NCBI GenBank assembly: GCA_001724265.1
Contig: MEDY01000123.1
Location: 1-64,000, forward strand
DNA length: 64,000 nt
From: Rhizaria sp. SCN 62-66
Lineage: Eukaryota
Reading direction: 5' to 3'
The translations under genes and the position numbers were made by a program. Below are positions 11,997-63,042 of this stretch, in pieces. The notes under the pieces are model-generated. The model searched no databases and was not told where the DNA came from. It saw only the letters and a list, made by a program, of their open reading frames with translations. The first letter of the stretch is position 1. Each line of letters begins with the position of its first letter.

Positions 11997-14900
11997 AACA
12001 ACTGCAACGCTGCCCAGGTCGCTTGCGTGTCCCCCCGCAGTGACCGCATTGGCGGCGGCTCTGTCTCGCGCCTTGTGTTCTCGGTCCCGCCTGTGCTCGA
12101 CGTATGCTCGATCGACGGGCTGCGCCGCGGGGTGCCGCTCGCCGCGGCGCAGCGCTGGAAGGGCCTCAGCTAGCTGGCCGCGGGCCTGCCCGCGTACTCG
12201 CCCTCCGCCGCCGCCGCGGTCGCCGCCGCCGCCACCAAGAGCAACCCCGGCAGCAACAGCGGGGCGAGCGTGATCAGCGCGGTGGCACCGTTCGCGCAGC
12301 CCCCACGGCTGCCGTCGCTGGCACCGCACGACGTGATGGCCGGCGTCTGCGGCTGCGCGCAGTGCATCGCCACGAGCACCGTCAGCGCCGCGCTGCCCCC
12401 CGACGTGCCGCTCAACTCACCCGTATGCGGCGGCGCCGGCTGCGACGCGGGACCGGCTGGGGATACCGATAACGCCGAGACGGCCTCGATGGCCGCCGTG
12501 GCTGCGGTGGGCGCGGTGGGCGCGGTGCGGCTCATCGAGCTCATGATGCCGTGCGGCCGCCTCGTCCGGCTAGCACGCCCTGCGGTGCCCGGCACCGCAG
12601 CCTCCGCCTCTGCCGCGCACGGCCACGCAAGCGCGCTCGGTGGCGACTGCGGGGGGCAGCAGGGGTCGACGCTGTTCAGCATGGAGCGCGACATCGCCCC
12701 TGTCTTCGCTGCCGCAGCCATCGCCGCCGCGGCCGCCGCCACCGCAGCCGCGCAGTCGCAGTCGACGACGAAGACTGATGCAGCTGCAAAGACTGCAGTG
12801 GCGCCGCTGGCAGCGACGCTCCCGTGGCTGCTGTGCTCGGCGCTCTCGCCTGCGCAGCGCGCGCCGCTGCTCCAGCCCGCTGTCGCGCACAGCGGCGACA
12901 AGAGCCAGACTAAGAGCCAGGGCAAGGGCAAGGCGGGCGCGGCGGCGGCGGCGGCGGTGGCCGCGGCCCTGGCGAAGCTGCCGTTCGTGTTCCCATTCGT
13001 GCACTGGGTTGGCGGCGCGACCGCGAGCCCTGGCCAGCCGGTGCCGCAAACGGAGGCCGCCACCTCGCCCACCCACACCCGCGCACATGCTCACGGGGCT
13101 GCGCAGAGCGCTCGCTGCGACCGGAGCGCGCACGCGTGCAACCGCCACCAGGCGCAGCACAGCTGCGGACATGAGCATGCATTCGCAGCCGACACGTTCA
13201 CGACCCCGGTCTGCACGGCGACTCCCGCAACCGCACTGAGTCGCGACACCGGAAACCGCCACGGCGGCTGCGGCCACGGCTGCGGAGCTGCGCCGGCGAG
13301 CAAGACGGTGTCCGTGGGCGTCTGCGCGCGCGCGCCGGTATGCGCGTGGTCCTGGGAGTGGGAGCACACGGCGTGCGGCATCTGCCTCGACAACCTGCGC
13401 TGGCGCGGCACGCCCGCTTGGCCCGGGCTGCTCGAGCCCGGCCGCGACGACGGCGCCGAGACCGACGCGGTCGCGGTCGCGGCCGCCGCGGCTACGGCTG
13501 CCGCAGCTGCCGCGGCCGCTGCTGCTGCAGCCACTGCGACCGCCACCGTTGACAACAACTCCGATCCCCACAACAGCAGCGACATCGTCGACGCGATGCC
13601 CCACTCCATGTCTGCGCCTGTTCTCGGCTCTGCGCCTGTGTCTTCCACCACAACCCGCACGGGCGACAACGCTGCCGCGACCGCTGTCATCACCGTCGCT
13701 GCCGACGCCGCTGCAGGGACGACTCCCCGTAGCTCCCGCGCCTCGTCGGCGGCGTCCGCCGCGTCGGCCGCGCTGGCCGCAGCGGTGGCGCGCGTCGCGG
13801 CGTCCTCGGATAAGCCGGTGATTTCGATGCCGTCGCTTCCGTCGCTGCCGACGCTGCCGACGCTGCCCAGCTTTGAGGAGCTGTCCGCCTTGGCCACGCG
13901 CGGCGTGCAGTGGGGCTGCACGCGCGCGCTGCCGCCGCTTGCGACTGTGCCCAAGTTCACCACCACCACCCTGAGCAACAACAGCAGCACCGACGCCATT
14001 GACGTCGACGTCGACAGCAGTAATGCCGACGGCGGCAATCCCGGCAGCGGACTCTTCGCCATCGCGAGCCACGCCCAGATCGCGAGCGAGGAGGCTTCTC
14101 CCGGCGGCCAGTTGACCTACACCAGCGGCGGCTTAACTTTGGATGCCGAGCAGCTAGACGCCCTTGCCGCTGCCGGCGCTGCGAGCAGCCTCAGCAACAG
14201 CGGCAAGTTCACCTCGCGCCACCTCTCACGGTCTCTCTCGGCGCCGCGCCCGCCCGCCCACGGCCCCATCCCGGACTCCAACAGTGCCGCAGCGGCGAGC
14301 TTTGCTGCCGCGGCCCCCGCGGCCTCCCGGGGCAGCCGTCACCGCGCCACCCGCGAGCGCGAGCGCGAGCGCGACCGCGGCGGTGTGCTGCGCAGTGTGT
14401 TTGGCGGCATCGCGGCTCGGCTGAGTCTCAGCTCGCGCTCGCAGTCGCAGAACAACTCGCACTCGCTGCCGCACGTCCACGAGCACAGCGACGGCCACAG
14501 CCACAGCGACCACAGCGCTGGGCACAGCGACAGCGGCAGCGACAGCGAAAGCGACGACCTCGACGACGACACCGACATCGACGGCAACCTCAACGCGGCC
14601 GCTGGCAGTATGATTGCGAGCGGGCTGCTCGCCCCCGGCTCTCTGCGCGCCCGCGGCAGCAGCGGCTACCGGCGCTGGCGCCGCCGCGTGACTGCGTGCC
14701 GCCGCTTCCCCTTCGGCGGCCTCGCGTCGCCGCGCCCCCGCGGCTTCCCGGCGGCGCACCTGCCGCTCTCCGCCAGCGCCGGGTCTCCCGTCGCCACCAG
14801 CGCCGGCGCGGCCGCGAGCAGCAGTCTTGTCGCCACCGGCCCCACGTCCTTCGCGCAGGCCCGCGGCTCTCGCCCGGCGTCGGCGGCCACGCCCACGGGG

Positions 14901-20400: not shown

Positions 20401-23400
20401 AGATCGTCGCCGCAAGCGTAGCGCCAACCTCTCCGGCGAGCTGAATAAGTGCATGGCTAATGTAGCCAGCAAGCTCCTCAACCTTGCCAGCCTCGACGAC
20501 AACTTGCGAGAGGACCTTATCGGTGCCGCAGGAAATAGCCCTGAGAAATACCACAATGAAAAGTAAATAAAAATAAAAGTGAGGTTAGTGACAACTAAAG
20601 GTGTCATAGACAGTCAATGATAGTGAGTGCAATACTTGTTGTTGCTGAACGTTTTCTTCGTACCTTTGGGCAAGAGCGCGAGCGACGCGAATGCGCTCAG
20701 CAGCAGTGGTCACGGTCATTTCAACAACGTTGAGGGCCTCATAGGCCTCATCGGTGTTCCAACCGAGCATCACGTCATTCTTGCTGGCGTTGTCGCTGCC
20801 AGCAGTCGCAGTAGCGCCATTGTTGCTGTTCAGCGAGTTCATGCTGGAGCTCGCACTAACGCTGCGGGGCACGAACGGAGCAGCAGCGCATGACAGCGGC
20901 GACGGGCCCGGGGTGGGGGCACTGTCGCTGTCGCACTCGCTGTCGTTGTCGCTCATCGCGCCAGTGTTGATGCCAGCAACCCTAAGCCTGAGTCCTAGTT
21001 CCGCCGAGTTGGCGTCGCGCACGCCGCTGCGCACTGCACTGCGCAGCTGCGCTTCGGCCTGCCACAGCGCCCACACCGCGGCGCGCGCCTCTACGCGGGC
21101 GCCGGCGACCCAGACGCGCCAGCGCAGCGACTGCGCGCACTCGCGCACGCAGCGGGCCAGCACGGCGCGCGCGCGCGGGTAGTCGTGCTGCCACGCCGCG
21201 GTCCACGCCTCCTCGACCTGCACACGCCACAACAGCTCCTGGTTCACCGCCGAGGCCGCCTGGCTCAGCGCGCCGTACACGGGCGCGAAGGCCTCGGTCG
21301 CGGCGGCAGCGCTTGCGGACACGGCAGCGCTGTTAGAGCTCGAACTCCAAGAGCCTGCGTTGCTATTGCTCGACTCAGAGGATGCGAGTGCAAAGAGAGC
21401 AAGAGTTGCGGAGGTGGCGGGCAGAGGGCAGGGAGTCGAATCATCGGTCTCAGGCTGTTGTTGCTGCGACTGCGCCTGACTGCCGTCGTTGGCACTTGAG
21501 CTCGAGCTGGAGGCCGTGCTGTTGGATGCGTTCGCGACAGCAGCGGCCGCGGCCGAGCCAGCCGGGTGGAAAGGGGCCGCCGCGGTGGGCAGCTGGCTGC
21601 TGGCCATGGCGGCGCCGCCCATGCCGCCGTACTGGCCGTGGGCCACGTGGCCGTGCATTGCCCCCGGGTGGCCGTGGGGCGCAAAGTGACCGTACGCACC
21701 GCCGTGCGCCATGTGGCTGTGTACCGCGGGGTGGTACACGTTGCCGTAGAAGTGGCCATGGGCCGCAGGGTGAGCGACAGGGTAGCCGCCGCCGGCCATG
21801 TACCCGCTGGGAATAAAGGCGCTGCTGTTCGCTGTGATGCCCGTGCTGCTGCTACTGCTGCTGCTGCTGCTGCTGGGCGGGTAGCGCGGGGTGACCCGGA
21901 GCGAGTCTGCCCACGTCTTGTCATGGCGGCACAGTGGCGGCGCGCTCAGCGCGGTCAGGTGCGCGCGCTGGAACAGGTGCGAGAGGTAGCCCGCAGTGTA
22001 GGCCGCCGACGCAACGCGAGGGCGCGACATCACTCCGGTATCACACTCACCGTCGTCCTCGCCCTCGCTGTCGCTGGCGCCGCAGTCCGCGTCCACGCTG
22101 TTGCCGTCCTCCTCCGCAGAGTGCGAGCTGCCGTTGGCGCAGCCGTGCGCGAGCAGAGGCAGCGCATCCTCGACGGAGCCCCAGGCGCGCGCGAGACCGG
22201 CGTTGTCGGCCATCTCGCTCAGCGCAGCGGGCAGCGCCAGCGGGGCCGCGCCCACGGCTACGAGCGCCTGCCGCTGCTGCACCTTGACTGAGGCGAGCCA
22301 CAGAGGCCCGTAGCGCGGGCAGGCGGCCAGGCCGTCGCGGACAGCGCGCGCGGCGAGGTCGAAGCGGCCGCGGACCTCCTCAAACTTGCTCGCCTCGGTG
22401 TAGATCGGGCCGTACCAGTTGACGTTGGACTTAAGAAACTTAAAAATGCGACGGGCGGTGTCCTCCGAGCCGACACGGGCCTCGAACAACGCGCCCTCGA
22501 CAATCACACGCCTGCGATGAGTTATGTTAAAAGAAAATACGGAGAACAAGTGTCAACATATGGGTGAGTCAGTTTTGATGTGAGCGGAATAAGGAAAAAG
22601 ATAACAAACATAGTTTTGCGATTGAAAATGAGCAATGCGTTCGCAACGTACCACGACTTAGAGAGCGACGCGTCAAGCACCGAAGCCAGGATCGCACGCG
22701 CGGCGGCCAGGTTGCCGAAGCGCTCATGCTGCTTGATGGCCTTGATGATCATCGCGTCGTCGGGATTCGCGCAGCGCTGGAGGCCGAGCATAAGGATGTT
22801 GAGGCACTGGTGCAGGTTCCCGGTCTCCTCGGCGACCTTGGCGTACTCCATGTACGCATGCGAAGCGGCCGGGTTGAGGTGCAGCGTGGCCTGGTAGTAG
22901 CACCGCGCCAGCGCGGGCCGGTTGTGGCGCCGCGAGAGATCCGCCAGCTCCATCGTGATCTTCCAGTGCGAGCGCTGCGGCGCCATGCGCAGCTGCGCGA
23001 GCCCGGACTTGTACGCCGCCTCGGGGTCCGTCTTGGCGAGCTGCCAGAAGGAGCGGTGCCACGACAGGAACGTCGCCTTCGTGCGAGGGGTCTCCGCCAC
23101 AGACACCGCGATCGTCGATGCGGGCGCCCCGGCGGCGCTGCCGGTGCTGCTGGAGCTGGACGCGGCCTCAGTCGGCTTGGTGTTGCTGTTTGATGCCACA
23201 CTCTCAGTCGCGCTTGCATTTGATGTGGGAGCAGTCACGGACGCAGAGGCAGAGGAAGCGCGAGGAACAAAGGCGGCCGCGTTCGCAGTCACAGTTGCGC
23301 TAACTGCGGCGTCCGAAGCGGGCACGAACGCAGGAGCAGACGCAGCAGGCATGAATGCATTGGCGCACGCATGCACGTTTGCGGACGCGGGCACGAAGGC

Positions 23401-28713: not shown

Positions 28714-31464
28714 TTAATACAGGTCCATCTCGTCCCGACTCCACCCCCACTCGCGATCACGGCGCAATTCTTCGCCGTCGCTGTCAAACCCACTGTTTTC
28801 CGCAGCGTCACCATCATCATGATTATCATTGGAGTCGTTGTCATCGTCATCATCATCAGACCAACAGCTCTTAAACTCTTCCACACCCACACAGCTGCTG
28901 CTTCCACGACTGGCGGTCAAGCCGCTGTCTTGCCGCCGTCGCATTTCCTGCATTCGTGTCGCAATAGCGACCGCCCTCTCGACCGCGGCCGCGACCCCCG
29001 CCTCATCCGCGGCCACGGGCGCCTCATCAGTCCAGCAGGGATGGTTCAGTGCGGCGCGGGCGCTGGGCCGCAAACGAGGGTCAGGGCTCAGCAGCGCGCG
29101 CAGCAGCGCCAGCGCCCGCGGGCCCAGCGGGGGCTACTGAGACTGAGACTGAGACTGTAGCTGAGGCTGTAGCTGAGGCTGGGGCTGCGACTGTGACTCT
29201 AAAGGACTGGACACATGACTGTGACTTGTGAGTGTGGGGTTAAACGTCGCGGGAGTAACAGCCTTGAGCAGGGCTTGCGTGAAACGGCTCTCATGGTCAT
29301 CATTCTCATTCGTAATCTCAATGAGACTGTCCGTCGCGCTCGAGCTGGCGCCGCCAGCCACAGCCACGGGAGCTACTGCATCATCACTGTCACCAGCTTT
29401 AGTCTTCGCTTTGGCAGCCTTCGCTCCAGCTTTAGCTGCTGCTGTGGCCCTGGCCGCCGCCAGCACCATCTCGACGGCGACCGCCATGCCGGAGCTTTCT
29501 TCGCAGATTGGGCCCGTCTGTGCGCCCGCGAGCGACTGCGCCCCCGACTCGGAGTGCCGCGACTGCTGCTGCGGCGCTTGCTGCGCCGGCACCGCCAGGT
29601 CCCCGGTGAGCGCGACTATCCGCTGCAGCTGCCGCCATTCGGTGTCCGCGCGCATCAGGGGCCGGCCGCCGCGCAGGAGTTCGGCCCACACGCAGCCCGC
29701 GGCCCAGAGGTCCACCGCACAGCGGCCGTGAGCAGCTGCGTCAGAGCCCGCGGCGTAGTCCGCGGCCGCGTCAGCGGCAGCGTCAGCCTCCGCGTCAGAG
29801 TGACTGTGGACAGGGAAGTCTGAGTGACCGTGGGCAGCCGAGCCGGCGGGGACGGTGCGCGGGTGAGCGACGCACGGGGAGGCGAGGGGATGGGGCGCCA
29901 GGGACGGCAACAGCAGCTCCGGGGGCCGGTACCACAGCGTGACCGCGGGCAGCGTGACCGCGGGCAACGTTACCGTGTGCGCGCTGACGGGCACTGCATC
30001 GCCCTTGCCCACAGCCACCGCGCCGTCGTCGCGCACGGCCCGCGCCCCGCCCCAGTCCGCGAGCTTGGCGGCGCCGGCGCGCGCGACGAGCAGATTGTAG
30101 GGCTTGACGTCCCAGTGCGCAAGGCCGTGGGCGTGGGCGTGGACCAACGCGCGCAGCAGCTGCCGCACGAGGCCCTTGGCCACGGCCCCGGGGCTGGGCG
30201 CGGCGGGGAGACCGGTGAACAGCGCAGTGTCGCAGCGATCGGCCTCGCGCGCCGTGACAGTGCTCTCGACCGCGCAGTCCACCGAGTTAACCGACAGCGT
30301 GCTTGGTGCGAGCGCGAGAGTGCGGACGAGAGTCGCCGCGTCGGTGGCGCACGACTCGAGGCACAGGAACACCGAGCCGGGCCGGGGGCGGAAGGCCCGG
30401 CTGCGCTTGAGCTCACTGGGGCTGTGAAAGACACCGGGCTAGAGATCGCGAGCGACCGTCGCAGTGAACGTCGCATCCCCGTTATCTCCGTCATAAGTGT
30501 TGTTGATCTGGCTGATGGTGTCGCGCTTGGCACCATTAGTCACAAACTCGTGTTTGTCAAGATAAATACAGCCAATACCGGGGGCAGCCTCCATAGCAGC
30601 ATCTGTCTCGTCATTGCCGCTCTCCAGTGCGCCAGAGTCATTTTGGGCTCCATCGTTGTCAGCGTCGCTGTCGCTCCATTCGCTCCCATCTACCGCGCTC
30701 GAGCTCGTGTCCGTCTGCGCGTCCGGAGCCGCATCTGGGACGACGAGCGCGCCCAGTCGCACGATGTTCGGGTGCGGCGCCAGAAGCCGCAGCACGGCGG
30801 CCTCCCTGACGGCCGCTGCGCACAGCCCGTTGCTGTCATCGCGACGGTGACCGTGACTGTGACTGTAGCTCTGGCTATCGACAGCTGCGTCGCGATTGCT
30901 GCTGTCATTGCTATCCCCGACAGCCGTGTTGCTGACTGTTTTGTTGTCGTTGTTGCTCATGTCCAAAGGCAGCGTCACAGCACCCACTTTGAGCGCTGTC
31001 TTTGCAGCCGCCACCGCCTCAGCGCGCTAGTCGTCACCAGACCGCGTGAGAAATGAAGCCGCAATGCCCAGTATGCCCATGCCGCCGCCGCCGCCAGTAT
31101 CACCGCGGCCGTCTCCGTAGTCCGCCTCTGTCTCGTCCAGCACGCGCTTGAGAGCGTAGACGCGGCCAGTGGCGCGGAGGCGCGCGCGCGTCACTTCACC
31201 GTACGTGCCAGCGGCGATGAGGTGCATGAAGCGGAACCGCGAGAGCGGGACCACCGGGATAAAGAGCGCAGTCGCCGTCGGCTCATTGTTGGCAACTGCA
31301 TTGGCACTGCATGCGTTAGCTGATGATGGTAAAGCTGGTGGAACAGCATCCCGGTCGCTGCGGTCGCGCGCGGTGCGCCAAGAGTTTTCCGTTGCCGCTT
31401 CTATCGTGACAGCATGCACGGTGCGGGTCTTCTAATCGAGGTTTGTGGCTGTGAAGCGGTCCAT
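28714..31464 (-). CDS. CDK-like (CMGC) protein kinase, ~916 aa, with four in-frame TAG codons and long insertions; an upstream exon may exist
   Basis: One continuous frame from ATG 31464 (MDRF) to TAA 28714 if TAG at 31434-32, 31029-27, 30441-39 and 29136-34 is read as sense. Subdomains in order: IAAGTYGEV..YALKRV | AVREAAVLRLLAPHPNIVRL | VFLCLE, HWDVKPYNLL, LADWG, VTLWYRPPELLL, DLWAAGCVWAEL | LLRALLSPDPRLRPSARAALNHP. Confidence 0.88.
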
Positions 31465-32430
31465 CGCGACCACTGGGTCAGACTGGGGGCGTTGCAGAAC
31501 CTGGAAGAGAAGCAAGACAGACACGTTAAAAAGTACAATTACGATGGACTACATAAAGTAAGCATAGACGTCGTTCGGTAGAACAGTAAAACATTTAACG
31601 ATCAGGATATGTCAGGGTGGATGTGACAAGTGGGCTGGCGAACACAGATTTTTGTTTGTGGTGGCATATACAGTTCCGAAAAAAGAGTCGGGCCGCAAAG
31701 TGAAGCACGCCCGTCGCCAAAGAGCCGGGTCCGGTCCGGTTCGTTTTGTTAAACTGCAGTTACTGCTTTGCCGGTCACGGGGAACATATTTCTGGTAATG
31801 TACGCCACTGAACGTGTACATTTGTCACTTTCCTTTAAGTGGGCGCGCTGATGGGCTGCATGCGTCGTGTAAGTATCCATTTGGCGACGCCTGCATCGTC
31901 CCGGACAGTTGTCGAGGCATCTCTTGCGTCGATAGATCCGGTTCGATGCCCTTGCTCGTTTGCTTCTTAAATACGCCGGATTTATCAACAAGTTGTTGTT
32001 TTCTAGCATTAACAATGCTTATTTATCCTGTTCATATTCGTCTATGGTGCTCCCGAGCGCTTTGAGCAGTGACCACAAGTTGTTCGACCAACAACGTGCG
32101 AGCTCCAGCCGTCGACAGAGCATCAGAGAGACCAAAAAGGTTGTTGCCGTTTGAAACCGACGATATGCTCTTCACACCTCTGGAGACTTGCGACAGGCCA
32201 GTGCATGTCTCCCTGATTGGCCTCTCCTTCACCCACAAAACGGGCTTTTTGACACCTTCGCAACAAGCCCCCTCCTCAAACGGCGTCCTTTGAACTCTTT
32301 GCATAAGACCCACGCAGCATGTCTTGCCTTCCGTCCAGTGCTCTGGGGCTCTGATGACATAAATTTTTCACACTTAAATTTCTATTCCTTTGCTTTTTTT
32401 TCCTTGTGCCGCTTAGCTTCACTCTCTTTG

Positions 32431-35400
32431 ATGAGTAGCTCCTCCAAGGACACGGCCCCTGACCCGACCCAGCCTGCCGCTGTCCCCACCGTCGCCCCCA
32501 GCGCCTCGGCCTCTCTTTCCGCTGCCCCTGCGGCGCACCTGGCGTCAGGCGAGTCTGTTAAGTCAATGCGCCGTAGCTCTTCCCAGCAGAACATCGCCGG
32601 CGGCGGCAACAGCGGCGGCAAGGCCTCTGCCTCAACTTCGGCCGTGCCCTCGCGCACCGGCTCCCCCCACCTCAACAACAGCACCAGCGGCGGCCACAGC
32701 GGCGGTAGCGGCCACCACGGCGGCAGCCACGGCGCGTCGACGCTGGTGCGCGAGGTGGCTGTGCGGCCGCTGGGCCTTGAGGTCGGCAAGACGGTCCCCA
32801 CGGCGCACTTCGAGTACACGTTTAAGAGCGACCGGCGCCACGCGCAGCAGCAGCAGCGCGACTCGCTGCAGCAGCAGCACGAGGCGCAGCTCCACCTTGC
32901 CGCCGAGCACGCGCAGTCGCAGGCACAGGCACAGGCCGCCGCCGCCGCCGCGGCCGCGCACGCGCACGCGCTGGCCATCGCGCGCCGCGTCGCCGGCAGC
33001 ACCCCTCCGCCCACGCACTCGCACGCGCACGCGCACGGCTTCAGCAGCGGCCGCGGGACGCCCCCGCTGCCGCCCTCGGTCACCGGGCTTGCACTCTCGG
33101 CCGCGGCGGGCGCGACCACGGCCGTGCTGTCGGGTGCACGCGCCGCAACGCCCCCGCACTCGCCGACGGTGCCCACCGCGGCCGACCCCGACGTCATCGC
33201 CGCCGCCGCCGCCGCGGCTGGGGGCGACGCGGGCGGGCTTGGCGCCGCGGCCGCGCCAGAGGAGGTTGCCGCAGCGGCCGCCATGTTTGCCAACGCGGCC
33301 GCCGCCGCTGCCGCCGCCGCCGCCGCCGCGGCGTCGCCCGCGCTCTCGTACCGCTCCGGCTCTGCCGGCACCGCGCCCGCGCTGCACGTGCCCGGCCACG
33401 GCCACGGCGGCCACGGCTACAGCCACAGCCACGGGTACTCCCAGGGGTTCTCGTTCAACACGGCCGGCATGAGCAACAGCAACAGCGTCAGCGGCAACGG
33501 CGTCTTGCCGGGCAGCAGCAGCAGCTGCGGGCTGACCGTGCCGACTGTGCTGCGCTCCCCGGTCCCGCTGCCGTCGTCCACGGCCGCTGCGGCCGCGCTG
33601 GCCGCCGCGGCCGCCGCGTCGGGCTCGGCGCCCAGCGCTGCCTACGACGCCGTGGCCGCCGCCGTGGCCGCCGCCGTTGCCGACGCCGCCGATGCTAACT
33701 CCGGCAAGACCGCCTCTGGCGCCGCCTCTTGCAGCGCTGGCCCTGCCACTGCGGGCGCCGCCGGCGCGGGCCATGGCAGCGGCACCGTGGACACGGCGGT
33801 GCTGGTGCAGGCGCTGATGCGCACGCTCGCCCAGCAGGGCCTGCTGTCCCCGCCCTCGGGCGGCGCGCCCGGCGCCGCCGGCGTCGGCGGCAGCGACGGC
33901 GGGGCGCTCCACATGCTCCCCACGTGCTCCACGCCCGGGCTGCCCGACGCGACCGGCAACGCGGTTGCTGCCGCCGCGGCCAGCGCTGCCGCGGCCGCCG
34001 CCGTGGCCGCGCACACCGCCGGCGCCGCGGGCGTGGGCGCGGCGGCCCCATCGCTGCCGCCGCTGCCGCGCACGGCCACGCCCACGCCCAGCTCTCCCAG
34101 CGTTGCGCCCGGCACGCCGCCCTCCTCGGGCTACTCTGCGGCGCACGCCGCGGCTGCTGCTGCGCAGTCTGGCGTCGCGGCCGCGGCGACGGGCTCGGCA
34201 TCCTCCCAGCCTGCCGCGCCCGCCGCCGCCGCCGCCGCTGCTGCTGCCGCTGCTGCATCGTCGAGCGTTGCTGGCGCTGCAGGCAATGCGTCTGCAGCTG
34301 CTGCCGCCGCTGCCGCTGCTGCGAGCGCCGCCGCGGCCGCAGCATCGCGGCGCCCGCTGGTGGTGTTCAAGATCGGCTCGAGCAGCATCAGCAACAGTGA
34401 GGGCCGTCTCTCGTTGAACCTGCTGTCGTCGTTCGTGGAGATGGTGTGCGACATGCGCCGCGACGGCTACGACGTTGTCATCATCACCTCTGGCGCCGTC
34501 TCCGTCGGCTGCCAGCGCCTCGGCTTGCGCGAGCGCCCCAAGCACGTCGTGACGAAGCAGGCCGTGGCGGCCGTGGGGCAGGGCCGGCTGATGCGGCTGT
34601 ACGACGACCTCTTCTCGCTGCTGGGCCAGCCCATCGCGCAGCTGCTGCTGTCGCGCGAGAACCTGGCGCAAGAGCACCACTACCTCAACGCGCTCAACAC
34701 CTTCCGCGAGCTGCTGCGCATGGGCATCGTGCCCGTCGTCAACGAGAACGACACGGTCGCCGTGCAGGAGCTGCGCTTCGGCGACAACGACACGCTCTCT
34801 GCGCTCGTCGCCGCCATCGTGCAGGCCAACTGGCTCTTCCTGCTGACCGACGTCGACGCGCTCTACACGGCGAACCCGCGCACGGACCCCAGCGCGCGCG
34901 CCGTGCGCGTGGTGCCTGACGTCAACGCGCTCTCTGTCGACACCGGCGACGGCGGTGCGCTCTCTGGCAAGTGGGGCACGGGCGGCATGGCCACCAAGCT
35001 GCAGGCGGCATCGATCGCCACGGCCGCGGGCGTGCGCACCGCCGTGTGCTCCACCGAGCGCCTGGGCGACATCAAGCGCATGCTGGCGGGGCACACCGAC
35101 GTGGGCACGCAATTCGTGCCCGCGCCCGTGGTGCTTTCGGGCCGCAAGAAGTGGATCGCCATCGGCCTCGCACCCGTCGGCAACGTCACCATCGACGACG
35201 GCGCCATCGAGGGTGTCGTCAAGAAGCGTTCGCTCTTCGCTGCTGGCATCTGCACCGTCGTCGGCAAGTTTCCCGCCAACTCGGCCGTCCGCATCCTCGC
35301 CCGCAACGGCGCCGAGATCGGCCGCGGCCTGACTTTGTACTCGTCGCGCGAGCTGAACCTGATTAAGGGGCTGCACTCGGACTCGTACGCGCAGCGCCTG

Positions 35401-36691: not shown

Positions 36692-39600
36692 TTATTCCTT
36701 TGTTGTTGCTGATGCCGTAGATGTCACAGTCGCCTTTGCGTAGGCAGCAGCATCTCGTTCCAAGATGTTGTACTTGTGTACACGGTCATTTTTGTCTTCC
36801 TTGGACCCCGCGATGACAATGCGACGGCCCGGGAGCAGCGACCGCAGCGTCAGCGACAGACGGCGATAATCTGGATGCAGACTCACCTCACCGCGCGTCA
36901 GCTTTTTGATTCCGTGTCTACGAAGTGTCCGACAAAAACGAACGCGAGAAACGTGAAAATACAATTTCGGGAGTACAATACGAAATATTGCATGGAAAAA
37001 TTATGTCATGTGATTGAACGTACCGGTAGAGATATCGTGCATCTCCAGCAAGCACATACAGAGAGCCTGCCGCGACAGGTACCGTGACTGTATGAGCGTT
37101 GTAGCAACACTTGTTGACCAGTGCCACACTAGGCGCCAGCGGCTCTGTAATCAGCGCCTCAAGTTCATCCTTCAGCGTCATAAAGATGTCCGCATGGCCG
37201 TGACTCTGATTTCCTTCACGAGCAGACTCAAGCGAGCCCACCGCGGCAACGGCTGCGGCGCTGGCGGCCTGGACCGTCTTTTCCGCGTCGCCCTAGCTCT
37301 TTTTCGTGCGCTCACCGTCCTTGAGCACCACGGCCGCAGTGCGCAGTGCGCCGGTCTCGTTCATCTTGGCCACAATGCGTGCGCGCAGACGCTGCCGCGC
37401 AGTGTCAAAGACGGCTGTCACGGCGCGCTGGCGCTCATCGCGCGCGCAGCGGCAGAAACGAGCCAGCGGCAGCGGGCCGGGGGTCTCCGCCCACAGAGAC
37501 GCGTCCTCGAGGTCAATGACAGCGGGTGTCTTAGCTGCTGCGGTCGGCGAATGTAGCTTAGCGCCGGATGGTGCGTGTGACTGTGCGCAAGAAGATGAGT
37601 CGGGGCAAGAATTACAGCTCCGGCCACATGCACCATCATCAGAATCCTTTGTTGAAGACATGTTCAACTCCTTGAGACGAGCAAGCTCGCGAGGACCGTA
37701 CGTAAGCTCTTGCCAGCGTTCAGCCCGCGTACTATCCAAGTCTGAATCATGAGCTGATGCACTCGTAGAGCTGCTGTTTGTCACAGTTGTAGAACTATTG
37801 TAAAACATAGACGTCATACCTTCTGACAAGTTTGTGAAGTCGACAATATCGTCACCACCAGCTAAGGCGCGGCCAAGCTTCGAGAACTCACGCGTTGAGC
37901 ACGAGTATGACGACGCGTGCGAGACTAGCTGTGCATTGTTTGCGGTATCGTTACTCTCGCATTTATGTTGGTTGTCGTATTGAAGAATCGCAGCGGCAAC
38001 AGCGTCGACGCCCACGGTGTCCGCGAGCGTCATCGGCCGCGGCGTGAGCTCCGCCACGTCGCCCAGCGCCCATTCATGCACGCCGCGCGCCCACTCCGCG
38101 GCTACGGCGGCGTCGACTGCGGACAGCGCCACGCGCGGCGTCACGCCCGCGGCCGCGGCGGCGCGCAGCACCGCGCCGTCAGCCTCCGCAGCGGTTCCGC
38201 CGCTGACGCCCGCGGCGAGCCCGTACGCGTCTGCCACCGAGGCGGCGAACGCGCGCTCCGCCTGCGCGCTCGACTCGGACAGGGCTGGTTTGCTGCCGTC
38301 CGCGCCCGGCGCCTCTATCGTGGCCTGGGCTTCGGTCGCAGCGGCAGCAGCCTCGGCCGCGGCGCGGAGCTGGCGCCGAACCTCACGCGCCTGCGCGCGC
38401 GCGGCGTTGCGGTTCAGCGCCTGCGCGCGCGCAGCGTTGCGGTTCAGCGCCTGCGCCGCGTCGGGCGGGGGCACCGCGCCAAGCCGCACCGCCAGCGACT
38501 CGGCAGCAGTCGCAGTCGCCGTCGCCGCGGCAGCATGCGCCGTCACCGCAATACCGGCCACCAGTTCAGCAGTGCAGTCACTGCTCGTGCTCCGATTTGC
38601 TTCGGCGTTGCTTTCTGCGATGACCGTTGGCGGGATCGACAAGTCGGCCGCCTTGGCGACGGCGACGGCGTCCACTGAGGCCTTGAGCTCTGCGCGCACA
38701 AGCTCGCGGAGGTCAAACCCGGGCGGCGCGCCCTGCGCCATGCGCCGCCGCGCCGTCTCCGCGCCCATGCACAGCGGCAGCGTGAGCGTGAGCGAGCAGT
38801 CGCCCGCGAGCGACACGCCCAGCACGAGCGGCCCGAAGGCCAGCGCGTCGTCGTAGTGCGTCCCAATGTTCTGCTGCGCCGTGTACTCATTTGCCAGCAC
38901 CTGCAGCGGGAACGACGTCGAGAGCCGCGGCGGTGACGGGGGCCGCGACATCAGCGGGGCCGCGCCGGGCAGGGCGTCCCGGTCGCGGCCGCGGGCGGGC
39001 GAGGGGGTCCGCTCGCTGGTGACAATGGTGTTCGCAGCAAAGCTCGTTGCAGTTTCCACCGTGTGATTGTGTGCTGGGTCGCTGAATGGCCCAGTACGGC
39101 TGCTTGAGACAGGCTCGTACACAGTGATTTTTGACTAGGAGACTGCGCGCGAGTGTTGCGACCAGTCACCCTCAGCGCCAACAACGACAGCTGCAGCATA
39201 GTTGCTGAGTGCGCTGTCGTTAATGTCACTGGTACTGCTAGCGTTGCCTCTGTGGGGCAGTGAGAGCCTGCGGTGGCGGCGAACCTTTGCTAGTCGCGGC
39301 CGTCCACTACCGTCATTCCGCGTGTTCACCTTTTCATCGTCGACGTTGCCCGCCATAGGATTCACCGAGTCACTATCAGGGTCGGCAACAATCCCATTAT
39401 CGGAGTGGCCATCGCCAGTGTTGTTGTCGCCTCTCGCACTCGCCACGGTGACCGAGTCGACGCGCGCGTACTCGGCCATCACGTCAGTGCGGTCCGCGGG
39501 CTCGAAGGCGCCCGCGGCTAGCGCGCGGTCCACGAGCCACTGCAGCGGCGCCAGAGGGAACGCGGCGTGGTTGCGGGGAGAAGCCGCCGAGGCCGCATCT

Positions 39601-40043: not shown

Positions 40044-40700
40044 GCTACGAATGCTGCGGGTCGGGGTTTGAGGGATAAGAGTAGGAGTCTTGCGGGGCGT
40101 GTGGTGTGCTTGTATAGTTATATGGCGGTTAATCAAACGAGCACAACTTGCGAGCATCCATGAGCTGCAGTCGCATGGACAAGTAAACCCACGTGGGCAG
40201 AAATGAGTTGGTAGGGGCGGGAAGAATTGATGTGAGATAAATGCACTGTCGCATCTTGCAAAGGTATAATAAAAGGAACACATAGAAAACCACGCACAAA
40301 TACGCAACAATACATTTTTAAGAAATGAATACGATTATTTGCGTCGCAATAGACTATACAAGTTAGTCGCTAAGTGTGCCATGCTGGGGCTTGGCTGTTC
40401 CCAGTGGTTCGCAAAAAAGTTGGACGGATGGATCACGTCAGGAAGCCCGAAATTAACATGCTAGATCTCATTGCAGACAGTTTAATTTTAACTGCAAAGT
40501 GATCAGCGTAAATGTATATCAGATAAAAAATGCACAATTTTAAACGATGTCTTACTGAACTGAATGGAACCTTGTCAATTCAAACTGCTACAAAGTACTC
40601 CCAACCCGCAGTCGGCCTCTTCCGCGCCATCACACATCCTGTGGACCACCAGTTTTCACACCCAGTCTCTGCTGCCACGAACGCAGCCCGCGGATTCTCG

Positions 40701-43700
40701 ATGAGCGCGCATGCCTACTCGGCCTCTTCGAGCGGCGACTTGTCTGCTTCCTCGTCTGGAGTGAGCGTCCCCATGGTGACGTACCCAGCGTCGTACAGCA
40801 GCGACGTCCTGGACTCCGTCGCGTCCAATTATCTCGTCGCACGCGGCTACAATGAGGCCGCTGCGCTGCAGTCTGCCATTGCCTAGCGCCGCATGCACCC
40901 GCCTGCGTCTGACTCGAACTTCATCGCTGAGCCCCCCGTTTTGTCCAGCATGGGTCTGCTCAACTCAACTGTCCAAGACGTCACACCAATCCTCTCCACC
41001 GATAGCAGTAGCAGCGGCAGCAATACAGGAGCCAATCTCGGCTCACTTTCCACGGACGCAAATTCTCTGTTCCCCGCACCCGTGGCGTCCGTCGCCTCCG
41101 ACCTGGACTCGACAAGCACGTACTCGCTGGCCGTCTGCAACCGCGAGTTCTCGCTGCTCTCGCAGTACATCGCGCAGCTCCCCGCCGCTAGTGCCGTGCA
41201 GTGCGAGCTCGCCACGCTGCGCTTTCCGCTCTTCGCGTCGTTCATTATCAACATGGTGCGCTGCGGGAACGTGCACGCGGCGGGCGCGTTCTTCCAGACG
41301 TACTGCCCCGACTTCGCCGAGTCGCACCACACGCAGATCAACCATCTCAAGGAGATCCACGGCGCGCAGTCGCTGCTGACGAACGACTTCACCAGAGCCT
41401 GGCTGCGCGAGAAGCAGCCGCTCGCGCTGTCGCCCGCGGCCTGGGGCGACTGCTTTGCTTTCTTGGTCGCCAACGGACTCGTGCTCTCTCTGCGCGTGTG
41501 CGTCGAGCGCCTCAGTCTTATCACCGCGGCCTCCTCTGCGCCCGCTGACGTCGAGGCCGCCGCGCGCTACGCCGTGTACCTGGCCGACGCGCAGGCCAAG
41601 ATTGCGCGCGACATTGTCGTCGGCGCACTTCCGGGCGGCTCCGAGGCGCTGCCGCGCCTGGCCGTCACGGCCCCGGGCAGCAGCGCCGCGCCCATGCTGC
41701 GTTCCGTCGCGGGCGCCGCGGCCCAGCACGCCGCGGGCGCCAAGCCTGCCGCGCCGACGCTCCCCTCGGTCGCCGTAGCCGAGGCGAGGCTCTTCGACGT
41801 GGTCACCTACGCCGCCTCGCAGGCCAAGAACACCGAGCTCCTGCTGGGCCCGCTCGCGGACCGCGCGGCGTCTGTGATCCGCGCCACGCAGGTCGCGCGC
41901 GCCGCGCACACGCGCCTCATGTTGCAGGCCGTTGCCAGCGCCAGCGCCGGCGCGGGCGCGGGCGCGGGCGCGGGCAGCGGCGCGGGTGAGGCGATGACGG
42001 ACGAGGCCGCGCCCGCCAACCACTCGACCGCGACTGCGAGCCCCGCCGCGGGCAACGCGAGTGCGGCGGCCCTGGCGCTGCCGCTTCGCGAGGAATCGGC
42101 TGCCGCAGTCATCGCGCACTCACAAGTACGTTGGATGTAATGATGCATGCTATATCAAGTCGAATCTTTATTTTTCATTCAGTGATCACACTCTTTATCT
42201 TACGCATTATATTTTGTCTTTGTTTATTCGTCAATTTTTTTCATCCCTAGGGCCTCGTCTCGACCCTGACCATGGAGCGCGACGTCACGATCGGCCCCGA
42301 GGAGCTCCGCACCGCTGCGCTGCAGCCGAGCCACCACGCGCTGACTCCCGGCAACATAGAGCTGTTGAACAACTGCCGGCGCACGCTCATGCCGGCGCAG
42401 GCTGCCGATGTGCCGCTGCCCGCGCAGGCGCACGACGCCTCGCTGCGCCGCACCGTGAACCTCCTCAACGCGGACGCGTTCAAGCCCGCGGCGGGCGTGG
42501 GGCTCGGCCCCGGTGTCGGCGGCGCGCCCGCGGCCGCCTTGGCCGCCAGGGTCACCGAGAGCCGCAACGCAGCTGTCGCGGCCGCGCGCGCCTCCCAAGC
42601 GGCCGCAAGTACGAGCAGCGCGAGCTCCAGCGCAAGCACGAGCGCGGCTGCGAATGTGACTGCGGGCGCGAGCGGTGACAGCGTCGCCAAGGCTGCGGCG
42701 ACCCGCGCCGCGGCCGAGGCCGTGTGCGCGGCGGCCGCTTACGACACCAGCGCGCACGTGAACCACCTGCCGTCGGCGGTGATGTACTCGCTGGTCAACG
42801 CGCGCAATGAGCTCTGCGCGACAGCCGTGAGCGGCGACTGCGCGCTCGTCGCCGCGGGCATGCAGGACTCGACCGTGAGCGTTTGGAACCTCAACCCGTC
42901 GCAGTCCGCGGTTGCCAGTGCGACGAACAGCAACACGGCGAGCAAGAGCCGGATCACGCGGCTTGTGGGCCACTCGGGGCCCGTCACCGCGCTGTCGCTA
43001 CAGATCGCGCACGGCAGCGGCAGCTACAGCAACAGCGACGCCTTCCTCTCGCTCCTCACCCCGCAGCAGCAGAAACAGCAACAACAGCAGCAGCAGCCGG
43101 CGCAGAGCGGCGCACAGTGCCAGGACTACGGGCTCCTGCTCTCGGGCTCGGTCGACGGCACGGCCAAGGCCTGGCACCTTGGCTCCGACGCGGCCGTGGG
43201 CACGTACCGCGAACACACGGGGCCCGTGCTCTCGGTCACCGCGGCGCCCATGGGCTACTACATCGCCACCGGCTCCCACGACTCGACCGCGATGCTCTGG
43301 GCCACCGAGCGGCCCTCCGCGGGCACAGGCGCGCACACGCTGGGGCTGGACGCCCCGGCCGTGGCCAACGGCGGCGAGGGCGGGCTCGGCGGCGCGCTGC
43401 GCATCTTCTGCGGCCACACCAGCGCCGTGCGCGCGACATGCTTCCACCCCAACACGCGCTATCTGGCTACGGGCTCGGACGACGCCACCGTGCGCCTCTG
43501 GTCGCTCGCCTCGGGCGGCACGGCGCGCGTGTTCCTACAGCCCGCGAGCGTGGTTAACTCGTCGCTCATGTACGGCGACACACTGGCTGAAAACAACCAG
43601 CAGGGGCTGCTCGCAGAGCGCCTCACCGCCTTCGGGGCCTTCGGCTCCAACACGGCCGGCTCGGCAGACGTTGCGCCCGTGCGCGCGCGGTCCGCGCTGC

Positions 43701-58876: not shown

Positions 58877-60110
58877 ATGCCTGTTGATCCCAACGCTCCT
58901 CGCAAGGCCAAGACGACCAAGGGCCAGCGCGTGCTGGACAACCGCGCGCCGAAGCTGACGGAGAACGAGAAGAAGTGCATCTTCGTCCGCGGCCAGACGT
59001 GCTCGGACCTCATCTCCAAGTCCATGACGGACCTCTGCGCGCTCAAGAAGCCTGAGTCGAAGATGCTGTCGAACAAGAACCCGATCCGCCCCTTCGAGGA
59101 CGCGACTTCGCTCGAGTTCCTGACGCGCGTCAACGACTCGTCGCTCTTCTGCTTCGGCTCCCACTCCAAGAAGCGCCCGCACTCGCTCGTCTTCGGCCGC
59201 ACTTTCGACTTCCAGATCCTGGACATGCTCGAGTTCCAGATCGACCCCTCGACGTTCAAGACGATGCAGGACCTGTCGAAGGACCGCGAGACGACGTCGC
59301 GCATCGGCGCCAAGCCGCTCTTCGTCTTCATCGGCGACCAGTTCACGCACGCCGAGGACATGCGCACCTTCCGCTCGCTGCTGCTCGACATGTTCCACGG
59401 CATCGACGTCTCCAAGACCAACCTTGCCGGGCTCGACCGCGTGATCATCATCACCGCCACGGTCAACCCCTCGGACATCACCAAGAAGGTCGTCTACTTC
59501 CGCCACTACAACGTACGTCACTACGCTTTGCTTTCTTTCGAGAGTGTTTGCACGTGTTTAATCGGATATATCATGTCATTGATATATTAACATGCCAAAA
59601 ATTCATATAACGTACGACAACATTATCATTTCTCACATCTTGCTCCTTGAACTCTAATATTTTGTTACGCTTGCATCTACACTTGCACAGGTGCTGAAGA
59701 AGAAGTCCGGCACGCGCTTCCCCCGCGTCGAGCTGGAGGAGGTGGGCCCGCGCATGGACCTGACCTTCAACCGCTCCTCGTCGGGCTCGCTGGAGATCCG
59801 CAAGGAGGCGCTGCGCGTGGGCAAGGGCGCCACGATGGCCAAGCGCAAGAACGTCGAGATTGGCCAGATGGGCCAGCTGCTCGGCCGCGTCCACATGCAG
59901 AAGCAGAACCTGGACGAGATCGCGCTGGCCAAGCTCAAGGGTCTGGGTAAGCGCGTCAACACGGGGGCCAAGCGCACGCTGCCGCGCGACGCGCCCGAGC
60001 CCGGCGCGCAGCTCTCGGACGACTGGAAGGTCGTCGCCGGCGACGCGCAGAGCAAGAAGCGCTCGCGCATGCTGCCCGCCGCATACGCCAACTCTGTCAT
60101 CTCGGAGTAA
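58877..60110 (+). CDS. RPF2: Ribosome production factor 2 (Brix domain); 2 exons (58877-59512, 59691-60110)
   Basis: KGQRVLDNRAPKLTENEK, KNPIRPFED..SLEFL, SLFCFGSHSKKRPHSLVFGRTF..ILDMLE, KKSGTRFPRVELEEVGPRMDL, GRVHMQKQNL. Intron GTACGT(59513)..CAG(59690). Ends TAA. Confidence 0.95.
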
Positions 60111-60870: not shown

Positions 60871-63042
60871 ATGTTGCACCCTGCAGGCTCGGCCGTTGCC
60901 TCCAGTCCGGTCCCGGAGCTGTCCCCGTCGTCGTCCTCGCACAGCCACGCTGACCCCGACGTGGCCGCCGCCGCCGCCGCGAACGCTGACGCCGTCGCTG
61001 CGAGCACGGTGATCCCCGCGTTGCCCGCGTCGGTGTCGGAGACGACTGAGACGGCTGCCGTGAAGCTTGTGCACAGTCTATCGCTGTCCCGCCACAACAG
61101 CAACGCGTACGCGCACAGCCACAGCCACGGCCCGAGCCACACGTCGTCAAGCGCCAATCTGAGCAGCAACGGCAACTACGCTGCCGACGCTATTGGCGCC
61201 AGCGGTGGTGTGCACAGCGCCTACGCCCACGCTAACGCTGGCGTTGGCGGCCCTATTGCTGAAGCGTACGGCGGCAACGACACGGACGCCGAGTCCACTG
61301 ACGGCCACACGGTCACCGTCACCTCGGACGACCCCAGTCTCGCTGCGGCCGATGCCGCCGACAGCGCGGACGGGGCCGGTCTGAGCGGCGAGCACAAGCC
61401 GATGCCGCCGGACTTAGCATCGCACGTTGTGCTGCTCAAGGTGCTGTACTTTCTGCAGGGCATGTCCGCGGCGTCGTGGGGCCGCTTTGGCACGATTTAC
61501 TACCTCTCGCGCGGGCTCACGCGGTTCGAGATCGGCATCATTGAGGGGCTCATCCCGTCGATCACGATGTTCGCGTCGCCGATCTGGGGCATCGTTGCCG
61601 ACAAGCTGCACTCGCGCAAGAAGGTCGCGCTCTTCACGCAGTCAGTCTCGGTCTGCATCCTCTGTCTGCTCGCGTTTCCCGCGCTGGCGAGCGGCTTCGA
61701 GTCGATCCTGGCCATCTCGATGCTCATGGCCGCATTCGTGTCCTCGGGCATCCTCGACGCGCACACGCTCGACGTGTTGGGCAAGGATTACTTCTACGCC
61801 TACGGGCCGATCCGCATGTGGACCTCAATCTCGTGGGGCATCGGCGCGCTTTTCCTGGGCTTCCTCACAGACTCCTTCTCAGTCTACTCCATCTTTGTCG
61901 TCTATGCTATCCTCGCCACCACCTCGATCGTGGCCACATCGCGCGTTGTGCCCGAGCAGACGCACAACGAGGCGCGCCGCGCCGTGGGGCCGCCACCGCA
62001 GCTCTCGGCGCTTTTCCGGGCACTCACGCGCCCGCGCATGCTCTTCTTCCTGTTCTAGATCGCGCTCTTTGGCGCCGGCATGGCCGTTGTTGAGCGGCTG
62101 CTCTTCATCTACCTGCGCGACGACCTGGGCGCCAGCAACTTCCTCTGCGGGCTCACCGTTACCGTCACGGTTATCTTCGAGCTGCCTATCTTCATGTACG
62201 CCGACCAGCTGCTCAAGCTCTTCGGGCACCATGGCATGTTCTTGATCGCCATGGTCGCGCACACGGTCCGCGTTTTCCTCTACACGCTGCTCACGCGCGA
62301 AGCCGTCTACGCGATCCTGCCGATCGAGATCACGCACGGCATTACCTTCGCGTGTATGTGGACCGCGGCAGTCGAGTACGCCAAGATGGGCGTGCCCGAG
62401 GAGTGGTCCTCAGCCGCGCAGTCGATCCTCGCCGCCACGCTCGGCTGCGTCGGCGCGGGCGTCGGCTCCATTCTTGGCGGATACGTCATGGACCGCTACG
62501 GCGCCATCGCGCTCTACACGGGCACCGGCATCATCGGGCTCTGCACCATCGCCATGCACCTCGCCTTCCACCTCGTCACCAAGATCATCGACGAGGGCGC
62601 CGCCGACGGCCGCCACAGCGGCGGCGCGGGCGCGGGCGAGCTCGACGACGGCGTCACACTCGACGGCATCGACGTTACGATAAGCGGCAGCGCCAGCCCC
62701 GCTGCCGCCGACGGGGTGGGCGTGTCCAGGGCCGCCGCATTCGCGGTCGCCGAGACCATTGACGGCGGGGGCAGCGGCGGCGGTGTCGGCGCTGGCGGCG
62801 GGGTCCGCGAGCAGGTGCCTGTCGGACTGGCCGCGGCACCCGCTGCTAGCGGCTACAGCAAGTACAACGACGACAACGACGACGACGGCGACGACGCGGC
62901 GGCGCGGTACAATGCACAGCACCAACAGCAGCGGCAACAGCAACAGCAGCAGCAGCAGCGGCAGCGGCGCACTGCGGGCGGCGCCGTGGAGATGGGCAGA
63001 GTGGGTGGGTACCGCAGCTAGTACGTGGCCGGAAGCAAGTGA
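60871..63042 (+). CDS. Major facilitator superfamily transporter (MFSD6/MFS_1-like), ~723 aa, in-frame TAG at 62056-62058 and 63019-63021
   Basis: N-half (LLKVLYFL, SPIWGIVADK, YGPIRMWTSISWG) and C-half (FGAGMAVVERLLFIYL, VIFELPIF, EITHGITFACMW, GVGSILGG) are in one frame, separated only by TAG (MLFFLF*IALFGAGM). The next non-TAG stop is TGA 63040-63042. Confidence 0.88.

Follow-up and report, generated by a model that had tools for sequence, protein, structure and literature searches.

A kinase gene with four in-frame TAG codons points to UAG as a probable sense codon in an uncultured rhizarian

Background

Nuclear genetic codes that give UAG and UAA different meanings are few; the articles consulted name a single rhizarian, a single fornicate, a single green alga and a number of ciliates (PMC11687900). 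In the rhizarian, exLh (Sainouroidea), UAG specifies leucine, and UAA and UGA are stop codons (Panek et al. 2017, PMC5304391); 384 in-frame UAG codons were reported in 71 genes, with UAA as terminator in 56 and UGA in 15 cases (PMC5304391). Iotanema spirale, Protocruzia tuzeti and some phyllopharyngean ciliates read UAG as glutamine and UAA as stop (PMC5304391; PMC11687900), and Scotinosphaera reads UAG as serine (PMC11687900). The present analysis is concerned with one 64-kb stretch of DNA, positions 1 to 64,000 of contig MEDY01000123.1 from Rhizaria sp. SCN 62-66, which is called the window throughout, and with a gene on its minus strand that specifies a protein kinase resembling cyclin-dependent kinases (CDKs) and contains four in-frame TAG codons. 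Taken as a whole, the data are best explained by UAG being a sense codon throughout the organism and the kinase gene being intact, an explanation that we consider probable.

The organism of the window would resemble exLh in the reassignment of UAG alone, in the use of UAA and UGA as terminators and in being a rhizarian near Guttulinopsis. It differs from exLh in that TAG aligns with glutamine or glutamate, never with leucine, at one conserved column and alternates with CAG between strains. Moreover, TAG is rare in the window (9 in 14,942 codons versus 384 UAG in 71 exLh genes), and the DNA is GC-rich and from wastewater, whereas exLh comes from an insect. If the glutamine reading is right, the code table would be that of Iotanema, Protocruzia and the phyllopharyngeans, which belong to lineages unrelated to the organism of the window (Metamonada in the first case, Ciliophora in the others). 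A literature search, with supplementary files outside its scope, yielded no rhizarian with UAG as glutamine and nothing on the organism of the window.

Regarding the kinase, CDKs are the obvious reference. In CDK2, R50, R126 and R150 clamp phospho-Thr160. Kinases without the arginine of the HRD motif are designated non-RD, and CK2alpha has a tryptophan at the phenylalanine position of DFG (DWG). The kinase of the window shares with CDKs the motifs VTLWYRPPELLL and DLWAAGC, the R-E pair of the alphaC helix and the catalytic residues K, E, D, N, and D. It is unlike CDKs in having HWD for HRD, DWG for DFG, LCAAAVRE for PSTAIRE, and alanine for the first glycine of the G-loop. It also carries five inserts, ranging from about 35 to 156 residues, and a duplicated 15-nt unit within its activation segment. 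The resemblance to CK2alpha and to non-RD kinases is confined to single motifs, and the sequence and fold matches listed are CDKs and not CK2.

Results

A kinase gene of 916 codons

Positions 31464-28714 of the minus strand constitute a single frame of 916 codons from an ATG (31464-31462) to a TAA (28716-28714). Four TAG codons, no TAA and no TGA precede the terminal TAA, while the other five frames over the same 2.7 kb contain between 7 and 49 TAA and TGA codons and between 2 and 7 TAG codons. The kinase frame is purged of TAA and TGA, not of TAG. Its parts are as follows; frame scores are from the codon-usage test described below, and the open reading frames (ORFs) are those of translation table 11.

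28714..31464, minus strand: coding sequence of the CDK-like protein kinase, 916 codons plus TAA, no intron detected
31432..31434, minus strand: TAG 1, codon 11, between the sole upstream ATG and the kinase domain
31027..31029, minus strand: TAG 2, codon 146, in the beta3-alphaC insert; own frame top-scoring on both flanks
30439..30441, minus strand: TAG 3, codon 342, in the beta4-beta5 insert; backed by the codon-usage test
29134..29136, minus strand: TAG 4, codon 777, just ahead of the PPLGPRALALLRALL block (subdomain XI)
28714..28716, minus strand: TAA terminator of the kinase gene
31027..31419, 30439..31014, 29134..30372 and 28714..29073, minus strand: ORF fragments, all in the kinase frame

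The original prediction, which was made from the sequence, described four colinear ORF fragments in one frame separated by single TAGs. Colinearity was confirmed, but only three TAGs separate the four fragments; the remaining one (TAG 1) is located 10 codons past the only usable ATG. If TAG is translated as a residue, the frame matches the Pfam family Pkinase with an E-value of 3.4e-24 (86.1 bits, cutoff 31.7). Five blocks are colinear with human CDK2 and are distributed over all four fragments: subdomains I-II are found in the first, alphaC-beta4 in the second, two blocks covering V-X in the third, and XI in the fourth. The kinase domain is whole only with TAG translated, as had been predicted. 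A public protein collection, relying on standard-code gene calls, stores the kinase as three separate proteins.

All four TAGs are covered by DNA contigs of two other studies (runs X3, records 2 and 3, and X4, records 9 and 10) without any difference, and an assembly error can therefore be dismissed. TAG 1 is covered by record 3 of X3 and record 10 of X4. Among the contigs listed, the strains in these runs show no difference over the kinase, and its sequence is unchanged in samples dated 2015, 2017 and 2025. TAG is about ten times denser in the kinase gene than in the remaining genes (4.4 versus 0.36 per 1000 codons). Three of the four TAG positions are in regions that are disordered in an AlphaFold2 model, and the high TAG load fits fast-evolving, weakly constrained inserts.

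Stop codons in other genes of the window

In 19 coding exons of the window, comprising 14,942 codons, nine in-frame TAG codons were detected in five genes, 0.6 per 1000 codons overall, and neither TAA nor TGA occurs in frame. The off-frames of the same exons harbor 327 TAG, 186 TAA and 985 TGA codons in 74,634 codons. Apart from those in the kinase gene, the in-frame TAGs are the following.

62056..62058, plus strand: in a transmembrane helix of an MFS_1_like transporter
40884..40886, plus strand: in exon 1 of TAF5; backed by the codon-usage test; CAG in strain X4
39135..39137, minus strand: in a 2-oxoglutarate (2OG)-Fe(II) oxygenase-like gene
37293..37295, minus strand: second in-frame TAG of the 2OG-Fe(II) oxygenase-like gene; backed by the codon-usage test
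12171..12173, plus strand: in a long RING-finger gene; backed by the codon-usage test

A codon-usage test blind to stops was also performed, in which a stop codon counts only if, out of six frames, its own scores highest over the 60 codons on each side. It returned six TAG, no TAA and one TGA, the latter being located just behind a true gene end. The 15 gene ends in the window, a small sample from a single stretch of 64 kb, consist of seven TAA and eight TGA, and none is TAG; that of RPF2 coincides with the C-terminus of its homologue. Comparing ORF lengths with TAG, TAA or TGA taken as sense did not discriminate, given the high frequency of TGA in the off-frames.

Two further assignments were considered and rejected. 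An in-frame TAA at 20585 between long ORFs suggested TAA as an additional sense codon, but it is located inside an AT-rich intron of 123 nt (GTACGA..CAG) in the gene for a large TPR protein. The length of this intron is a multiple of three and TAA read-through is mimicked. TAGs at 63019 and 36918 near gene ends suggested TAG terminators, but they are found at or behind GTACGT donors. One such donor-like site overlaps the last TAG of the MFS ORF (63019-63026, plus strand) and another is near the end of the 2OG-oxygenase-like ORF (37018-37023, minus strand), which suggests further 3' exons in both genes. A long frame rich in Q, S and A at 50151-54782 (plus strand) has a GC content at third codon positions (GC3) of 0.56, no Pfam match and up to five further in-frame TAGs, one of which, at 53829, is situated in a poly-Q context (QQQQF-TAG-QQHQ). 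Whether this frame is coding is uncertain, and the TAG counts do not include it.

Amino acid specified by TAG

The TAG of the MFS transporter could be aligned gap-free to a column occupied by glutamine in three and by glutamate in 18 of 21 homologues, leucine being absent. Both of the closest homologues (57% and 52% identical) carry glutamine at this position. The TAF5 TAG at 40884 reads CAG in strain X4, the sole difference in a contig of 1,386 nt. Run X4 shows even depth over intergenic DNA, as is the behaviour of a DNA library, and its C at 40884 must therefore stem from variation in the genome and not from RNA editing. At the three kinase TAGs covered by contigs listed, X4 keeps TAG. From the alignment and the variant, TAG most likely stands for glutamine, an assignment which we hold with fair but not high confidence; glutamate is next, and leucine is unlikely. 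No eRF1 gene is present within the window.

Introns and transcripts

Four introns, verified by frame joins and homology, served as reference.

59513..59690, plus strand: RPF2 intron, 178 nt, GC 0.36, GTACGT..CAG
42126..42250, plus strand: TAF5 intron from the NTD2 exon to the WD40 exon, 125 nt, GC 0.31, GTACGT..TAG
20541..20663, minus strand: TPR-gene intron with the only in-frame TAA between two coding ORFs, 123 nt, GC 0.34, GTACGA..CAG
22512..22651, minus strand: TPR-gene intron, 140 nt, GC 0.38, GTACGT..CAG

The verified introns are 123-178 nt long and AT-rich (GC 0.31-0.38), and all begin with GTACG. RPF2 exon 2 matches residues 211-349 of a homologue with 79% identity. The kinase inserts, with a GC content of 0.60-0.74, are unlike these introns, and the sole GTACG in the kinase gene is part of the G-loop codons. 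Judged by these signals, the kinase gene has no intron that could remove a TAG. Splicing as a means of removing the TAG segments, which the original prediction had named as a possible objection, was thus checked, and neither a suitable GTACG donor nor inserts of intron-like composition were found.

Contigs of a poly-A metatranscriptome (X6), in which depth is near zero across intergenic bins, match 29368-29798 and 29939-30248 exactly. The latter (record 20) spans HWD and DWG. Of the transcript expected over 28714-31464 from the original prediction, the kinase core is represented by these exact poly-A contigs, while a bridge over a TAG is missing from the contigs listed that are surely RNA. Intron joints are likewise absent from the contigs listed, which is uninformative either way. 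Transcription of the kinase gene is likely; translation past the TAGs is only predicted.

Features of the predicted kinase

Searching the sequences of the PDB with the kinase gave 177 matches at an E-value of 1e-8 or better, CDK2 being the best (9.1e-20); the 60 of these that are listed are all CDK2, CDK3, CDK5 or CDK6. A structure was modelled with AlphaFold2 from an alignment with 76 homologues. The core is confident, with 249 residues at a predicted local distance difference test (pLDDT) value of 90 or more and a predicted template modelling (TM) score of 0.68, and the inserts are disordered. In Foldseek, the top matches of the model are cyclin-bound CDK9, CDK12, CDK11B and CDK2; where a match extends over the full span, the target TM-score is 0.73-0.83. 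The CDK-like nature proposed originally is borne out by these searches and by the Pfam match, and the diagnostic motifs could be verified at the following positions.

30094..30117, minus strand: catalytic loop HWDVKPYN, arginine of HRD replaced by tryptophan
30049..30057, minus strand: DWG replacing DFG
30802..30828, minus strand: alphaC (PSTAIRE-equivalent) helix GLCAAAVRE, arginine and glutamate kept
31147-31149, minus strand: beta3 lysine
29929-29979, minus strand: activation-segment stretch HTVTLPAVTLPAVTLWY
29935..29975, minus strand: 15-nt tandem repeat in the activation segment, encoding VTLPA VTLPA VTL (Tandem Repeats Finder)

The catalytic residues K106, E221, D452, N457 and D470 are all retained, and the 15-nt repeat is present in 2.7 copies with 92% matches; in both respects the earlier description was accurate. 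Its classification as non-RD also holds: a tryptophan codon, TGG at 30112-30114, is found in place of the HRD arginine, and this codon is identical in a DNA contig of X3 and an RNA contig of X6. In the motif alignment, for which 76 homologues were picked from 150 listed matches, arginine occupies this position in 76 of 76 homologues. The phenylalanine position of DFG is more variable among them, with F in 69, W, Y and L in two each, and C in one. A single C-to-T change at a CpG would turn an ancestral CGG (Arg) into the TGG at 30112-30114.

The alphaC helix is modelled at a pLDDT above 90; R220 and E221 are kept, and C, A and V are found at the P, S/T and I positions of PSTAIRE. T504, supplied by the VTLPA repeat, is located seven residues ahead of the tryptophan of WYR (W511), an offset which we take to be that of CDK2 Thr160. 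R220 and R475 are conserved, two of the three arginines that clamp the phospho-threonine in CDK2. With the HRD arginine, the third of them, lost, the kinase may plausibly rely less on T-loop phosphorylation for its activation, as far as the analogy with CDK2 carries. The original inference that such phosphorylation may not regulate the kinase has to be set against T504 and the two arginines that remain. The conserved blocks show a GC3 of 0.82-0.94 and the inserts of 0.65-0.80. From sequence and model, the kinase is predicted to be a divergent CDK-like enzyme, nearest to transcriptional CDKs, with an intact set of catalytic residues, and it is taken to be active.

A HMMER search against 1.84 billion representatives revealed 11,004 proteins at an E-value of 1e-3 or better, of which only three reached 1e-30, all of them fragments of the window kinase itself. 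A separate search for homologous proteins gave one weak match, a CTD-kinase-like protein of rice with 30% identity, and in a search of metagenome contigs no relative was detected among 583 pattern matches. The nearest relative among the matches listed is P0127, a partial metagenome kinase of 491 amino acids on a 9.5-kb contig (JGI), with 32% identity across 338 aligned columns. It shares with the window kinase RPGSVFL(L/C)LE in beta5, AVAK..QLLRAL.HAHA in alphaE, KLADWG.ARA including DWG, and VTLWYRPPELL, and both have an insert in the same place between beta4 and beta5. P0127 differs in that HRD is retained and YT-P is found at the T-loop position, the YT having the same offset from the WYR tryptophan as T504.

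A second kinase of the window may be used as control.

8165-9118, minus strand: compact Aurora-like kinase, Pfam Pkinase E-value 6.8e-75

This gene (9118-8165) specifies canonical HRD and DFG motifs and contains neither inserts nor a TAG. The oddities of the CDK-like gene are therefore gene-specific.

Origin of the window

The runs holding the stretch are metagenomes of bioreactors, wastewater, activated sludge and fuel cells. For RPF2, a ribosome-biogenesis gene, the top named relative is that of Guttulinopsis vulgaris (56%), and the next is that of Plasmodiophora (48%). A maximum-likelihood tree built from 27 sequences of RPF2 puts the window in a clade of 11, supported by 100/98, together with Guttulinopsis and unnamed metagenome proteins, and Plasmodiophora falls outside; the tree represents one gene, with few named cercozoans among the matches. 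The source is probably an uncultured, GC-rich and flagellated rhizarian protist near the sainouroid Guttulinopsis. A sister lineage, about 79% identical, is represented by its RPF2, P0003.

The best named homologue of the MFS transporter (54%) is P0275, a UniRef entry labelled Lygus hesperus. The transcriptome of this bug is contaminated by the sainouroid exLh (PMC5304391), and we infer that P0275 is from exLh and not from the insect itself or from a trypanosomatid that contaminates it. The genome of Rosculus vilicus, presented as the first from a sainouroid, has a GC content of 37.7% (PMC10770858). This species was rejected as source, the GC content across the window being 52-75%.

Scans of genome contigs with P0006 and with the RPF2 of the window gave no match, and a search of metagenome contigs with RPF2 revealed only a copy of the window itself of 1,158 bp and distant loci. 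An RNA contig of X6 and a contig of X4 differ from the window at many sites (26883-27017, 34761-34827). The differences are mostly spaced in multiples of three, the pattern of synonymous third positions, and these samples seem to contain a second lineage that is closely related.

Other genes

In addition to the CDK-like gene, the window contains genes for CCDC113/96, the Aurora-like kinase, the RING protein, the large TPR protein, glutamate 5-kinase with a PUA domain, the 2OG-oxygenase-like protein, TAF5, translin, a GT2 protein, an FOP-like protein, RPF2 and the MFS transporter. TAF5 (40689-44428, plus strand) is split by a phase-0 intron of 125 nt (42126-42250), and gene callers would report two genes. 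The TPR gene (17432-24297, minus strand) consists of three long ORFs with two introns, about 2,200 codons in total. Glutamate 5-kinase (AA_kinase and PUA; 32188-36009, plus strand) has an N-terminal extension of about 700 residues that is rich in alanine and serine and of low complexity, and translin takes 333 residues to cover 200 profile positions. Long inserts of low complexity are a general trait of the proteins of this organism. For the 2OG-oxygenase-like gene, no match was obtained among PDB sequences.

Discussion

In the explanation that we prefer, UAG would be read as sense in the nuclear code, and UAA and UGA would stay terminators. The kinase gene, 31464-28714, would be one uninterrupted gene of 916 codons, intact because the organism reads TAG as an amino acid. 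Its four TAGs would represent rare sense codons that accumulated in the N-terminal leader and in fast-evolving, disordered inserts of low complexity. By comparison with other UAG-only reassignments, a tRNA with anticodon CUA would be expected to decode them, and an eRF1 recognising UAG poorly would help. The product would be a CDK-like enzyme of the non-RD type (H-W-D), with DWG and five large inserts. Since the code change would be organism-wide, nothing particular to the kinase could be read from its TAGs beyond their roughly ten-fold density. Read-through as a property of the kinase gene, as the original prediction had it, gives way here to evidence pointing to a changed code of the whole organism. 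The TAG-only pattern is mild evidence when taken alone, because most nonsense mutations in GC3-rich genes yield TAG. The case is made by a combination: a frame free of TAA, TGA and frameshifts, five affected genes including TAF5, no gene end with TAG, the Q/E column of the MFS transporter, and sequences unchanged between samples.

A number of observations weigh against this explanation. In GC3-rich genes 56-70% of the possible nonsense mutations give TAG, and the TAG-only pattern is weak by itself, with p of about 0.11 for four out of four and about 0.03 for nine out of nine. The exons counted were delimited partly by the lack of TAA and TGA, and the count is not fully independent. The kinase alone carries four of the nine in-frame TAGs of the window, and its density of 4.4 per 1000 codons equals the off-frame density of 4.38. 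An arginine kept by 76 of 76 homologues has been lost from the kinase, and no close orthologue was found by HMMER among 1.84 billion representatives. TAG density, lost arginine and missing orthologue would also fit relaxed constraint, and the high TAG load leaves a small probability that the whole kinase is under relaxed constraint. A contig of run X7 (29049-29302) crosses the TAG at 29134 unspliced, but this library may be DNA, and among the contigs listed none that is surely RNA bridges a TAG, which is uninformative either way. The call of the amino acid is based on one conserved column and one TAG/CAG polymorphism, and no tRNA was detected in the 64-kb window (ARAGORN, 0 tRNAs; Rfam, 0 matches).

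A more specific version of UAG as a sense codon is that the lineage of the window represents a second, independent reassignment of UAG in or beside the Sainouroidea, to glutamine and not to leucine as in exLh. We regard this as possible, yet doubtful. UAG might have been freed, or have become ambiguous, in an ancestor shared by the sister lineages, each of which then recruited a different tRNA to it. The window would show an early stage, with TAG gone from gene ends yet rare and confined to unconstrained segments.

Other explanations leave the genetic code unchanged. UAG could still be a stop codon, albeit a leaky one, with context-dependent or programmed read-through by a near-cognate tRNA inserting glutamine, tyrosine or lysine, and the full-length kinase being a fraction of the product. 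A C following a stop codon makes a weak termination context, and C follows five of the nine in-frame TAGs. The low in-frame frequency of TAG (0.6 per 1000 codons), almost exclusively in poorly conserved segments, would be in line with this view, and a glutamine-like residue would be inserted at the MFS column by near-cognate read-through as well. However, TAG is found at none of 15 gene ends. With four serial read-throughs in a single gene, hardly any full-length product would be made. Read-through would also be required for TAF5 and for the MFS transporter, and a TAG at a conserved polar column within a transmembrane helix suggests efficient decoding. Read-through of this kind appears improbable.

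Even less credit is given to the possibility that the kinase gene is in decay, as a pseudogene or as one for a pseudokinase, in an organism with the standard code, the TAGs being nonsense mutations and HWD a sign of decay. Such decay would account for the loss of the HRD arginine, the lower GC3 of the inserts (0.65-0.80) relative to the conserved blocks, the missing close orthologue and a TAG density not different from that of the off-frames, and 56-60% of the possible nonsense mutations in this gene would indeed create TAG. It would not account for 916 codons without TAA, TGA or a frameshift where other frames contain 7 to 49 TAA and TGA codons, nor for the retention of every catalytic residue, a GC3 of 0.82-0.94 in the conserved blocks and a confidently modelled core. 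Furthermore, four other genes show the TAG-only pattern, among them TAF5 and the transporter whose TAG is located at a conserved column. Samples of 2015, 2017 and 2025 agree in sequence, and poly-A RNA contigs cover the kinase core.

Removal of the TAGs from the translated RNA, by in-frame introns ending in TAG or by editing such as U-to-C to give CAG, is the least credible explanation. In its favour, YAG is the consensus of intron acceptors, three TAGs are at the 3' edge of inserts, the TAF5 intron ends in CCCTAG, and one TAG reads CAG in run X4, but there is no GTACG donor upstream of any TAG save the one inside the G-loop codons, the GC content of the inserts (0.60-0.74) is far from that of the four real introns (0.31-0.38), four introns would be needed, all in phase 0, with lengths divisible by three and free of further stops. 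In addition, the MFS TAG is paired with precisely one residue in an ungapped alignment, and run X4, which has the even depth of a DNA library, still shows TAG at those three kinase positions that its listed contigs cover.

Conclusions

With UAG as a sense codon, standard-code gene callers fragment the genes of this organism, which introduces systematic errors into the annotation of such eukaryotes in metagenomes. Given how few nuclear codes separate UAG from UAA, a GC-rich, intron-poor rhizarian from wastewater with contigs of 200 kb would provide genomic DNA for a UAG-only code in Rhizaria. Changes in tRNA and eRF1 would become directly findable, and it could be tested if the amino acid specified by UAG differs from one related lineage to another. 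The kinase, CDK-like in its sequence, without the HRD arginine and with DWG, would constitute a natural experiment on the need of CDK activation for the phospho-threonine clamp.

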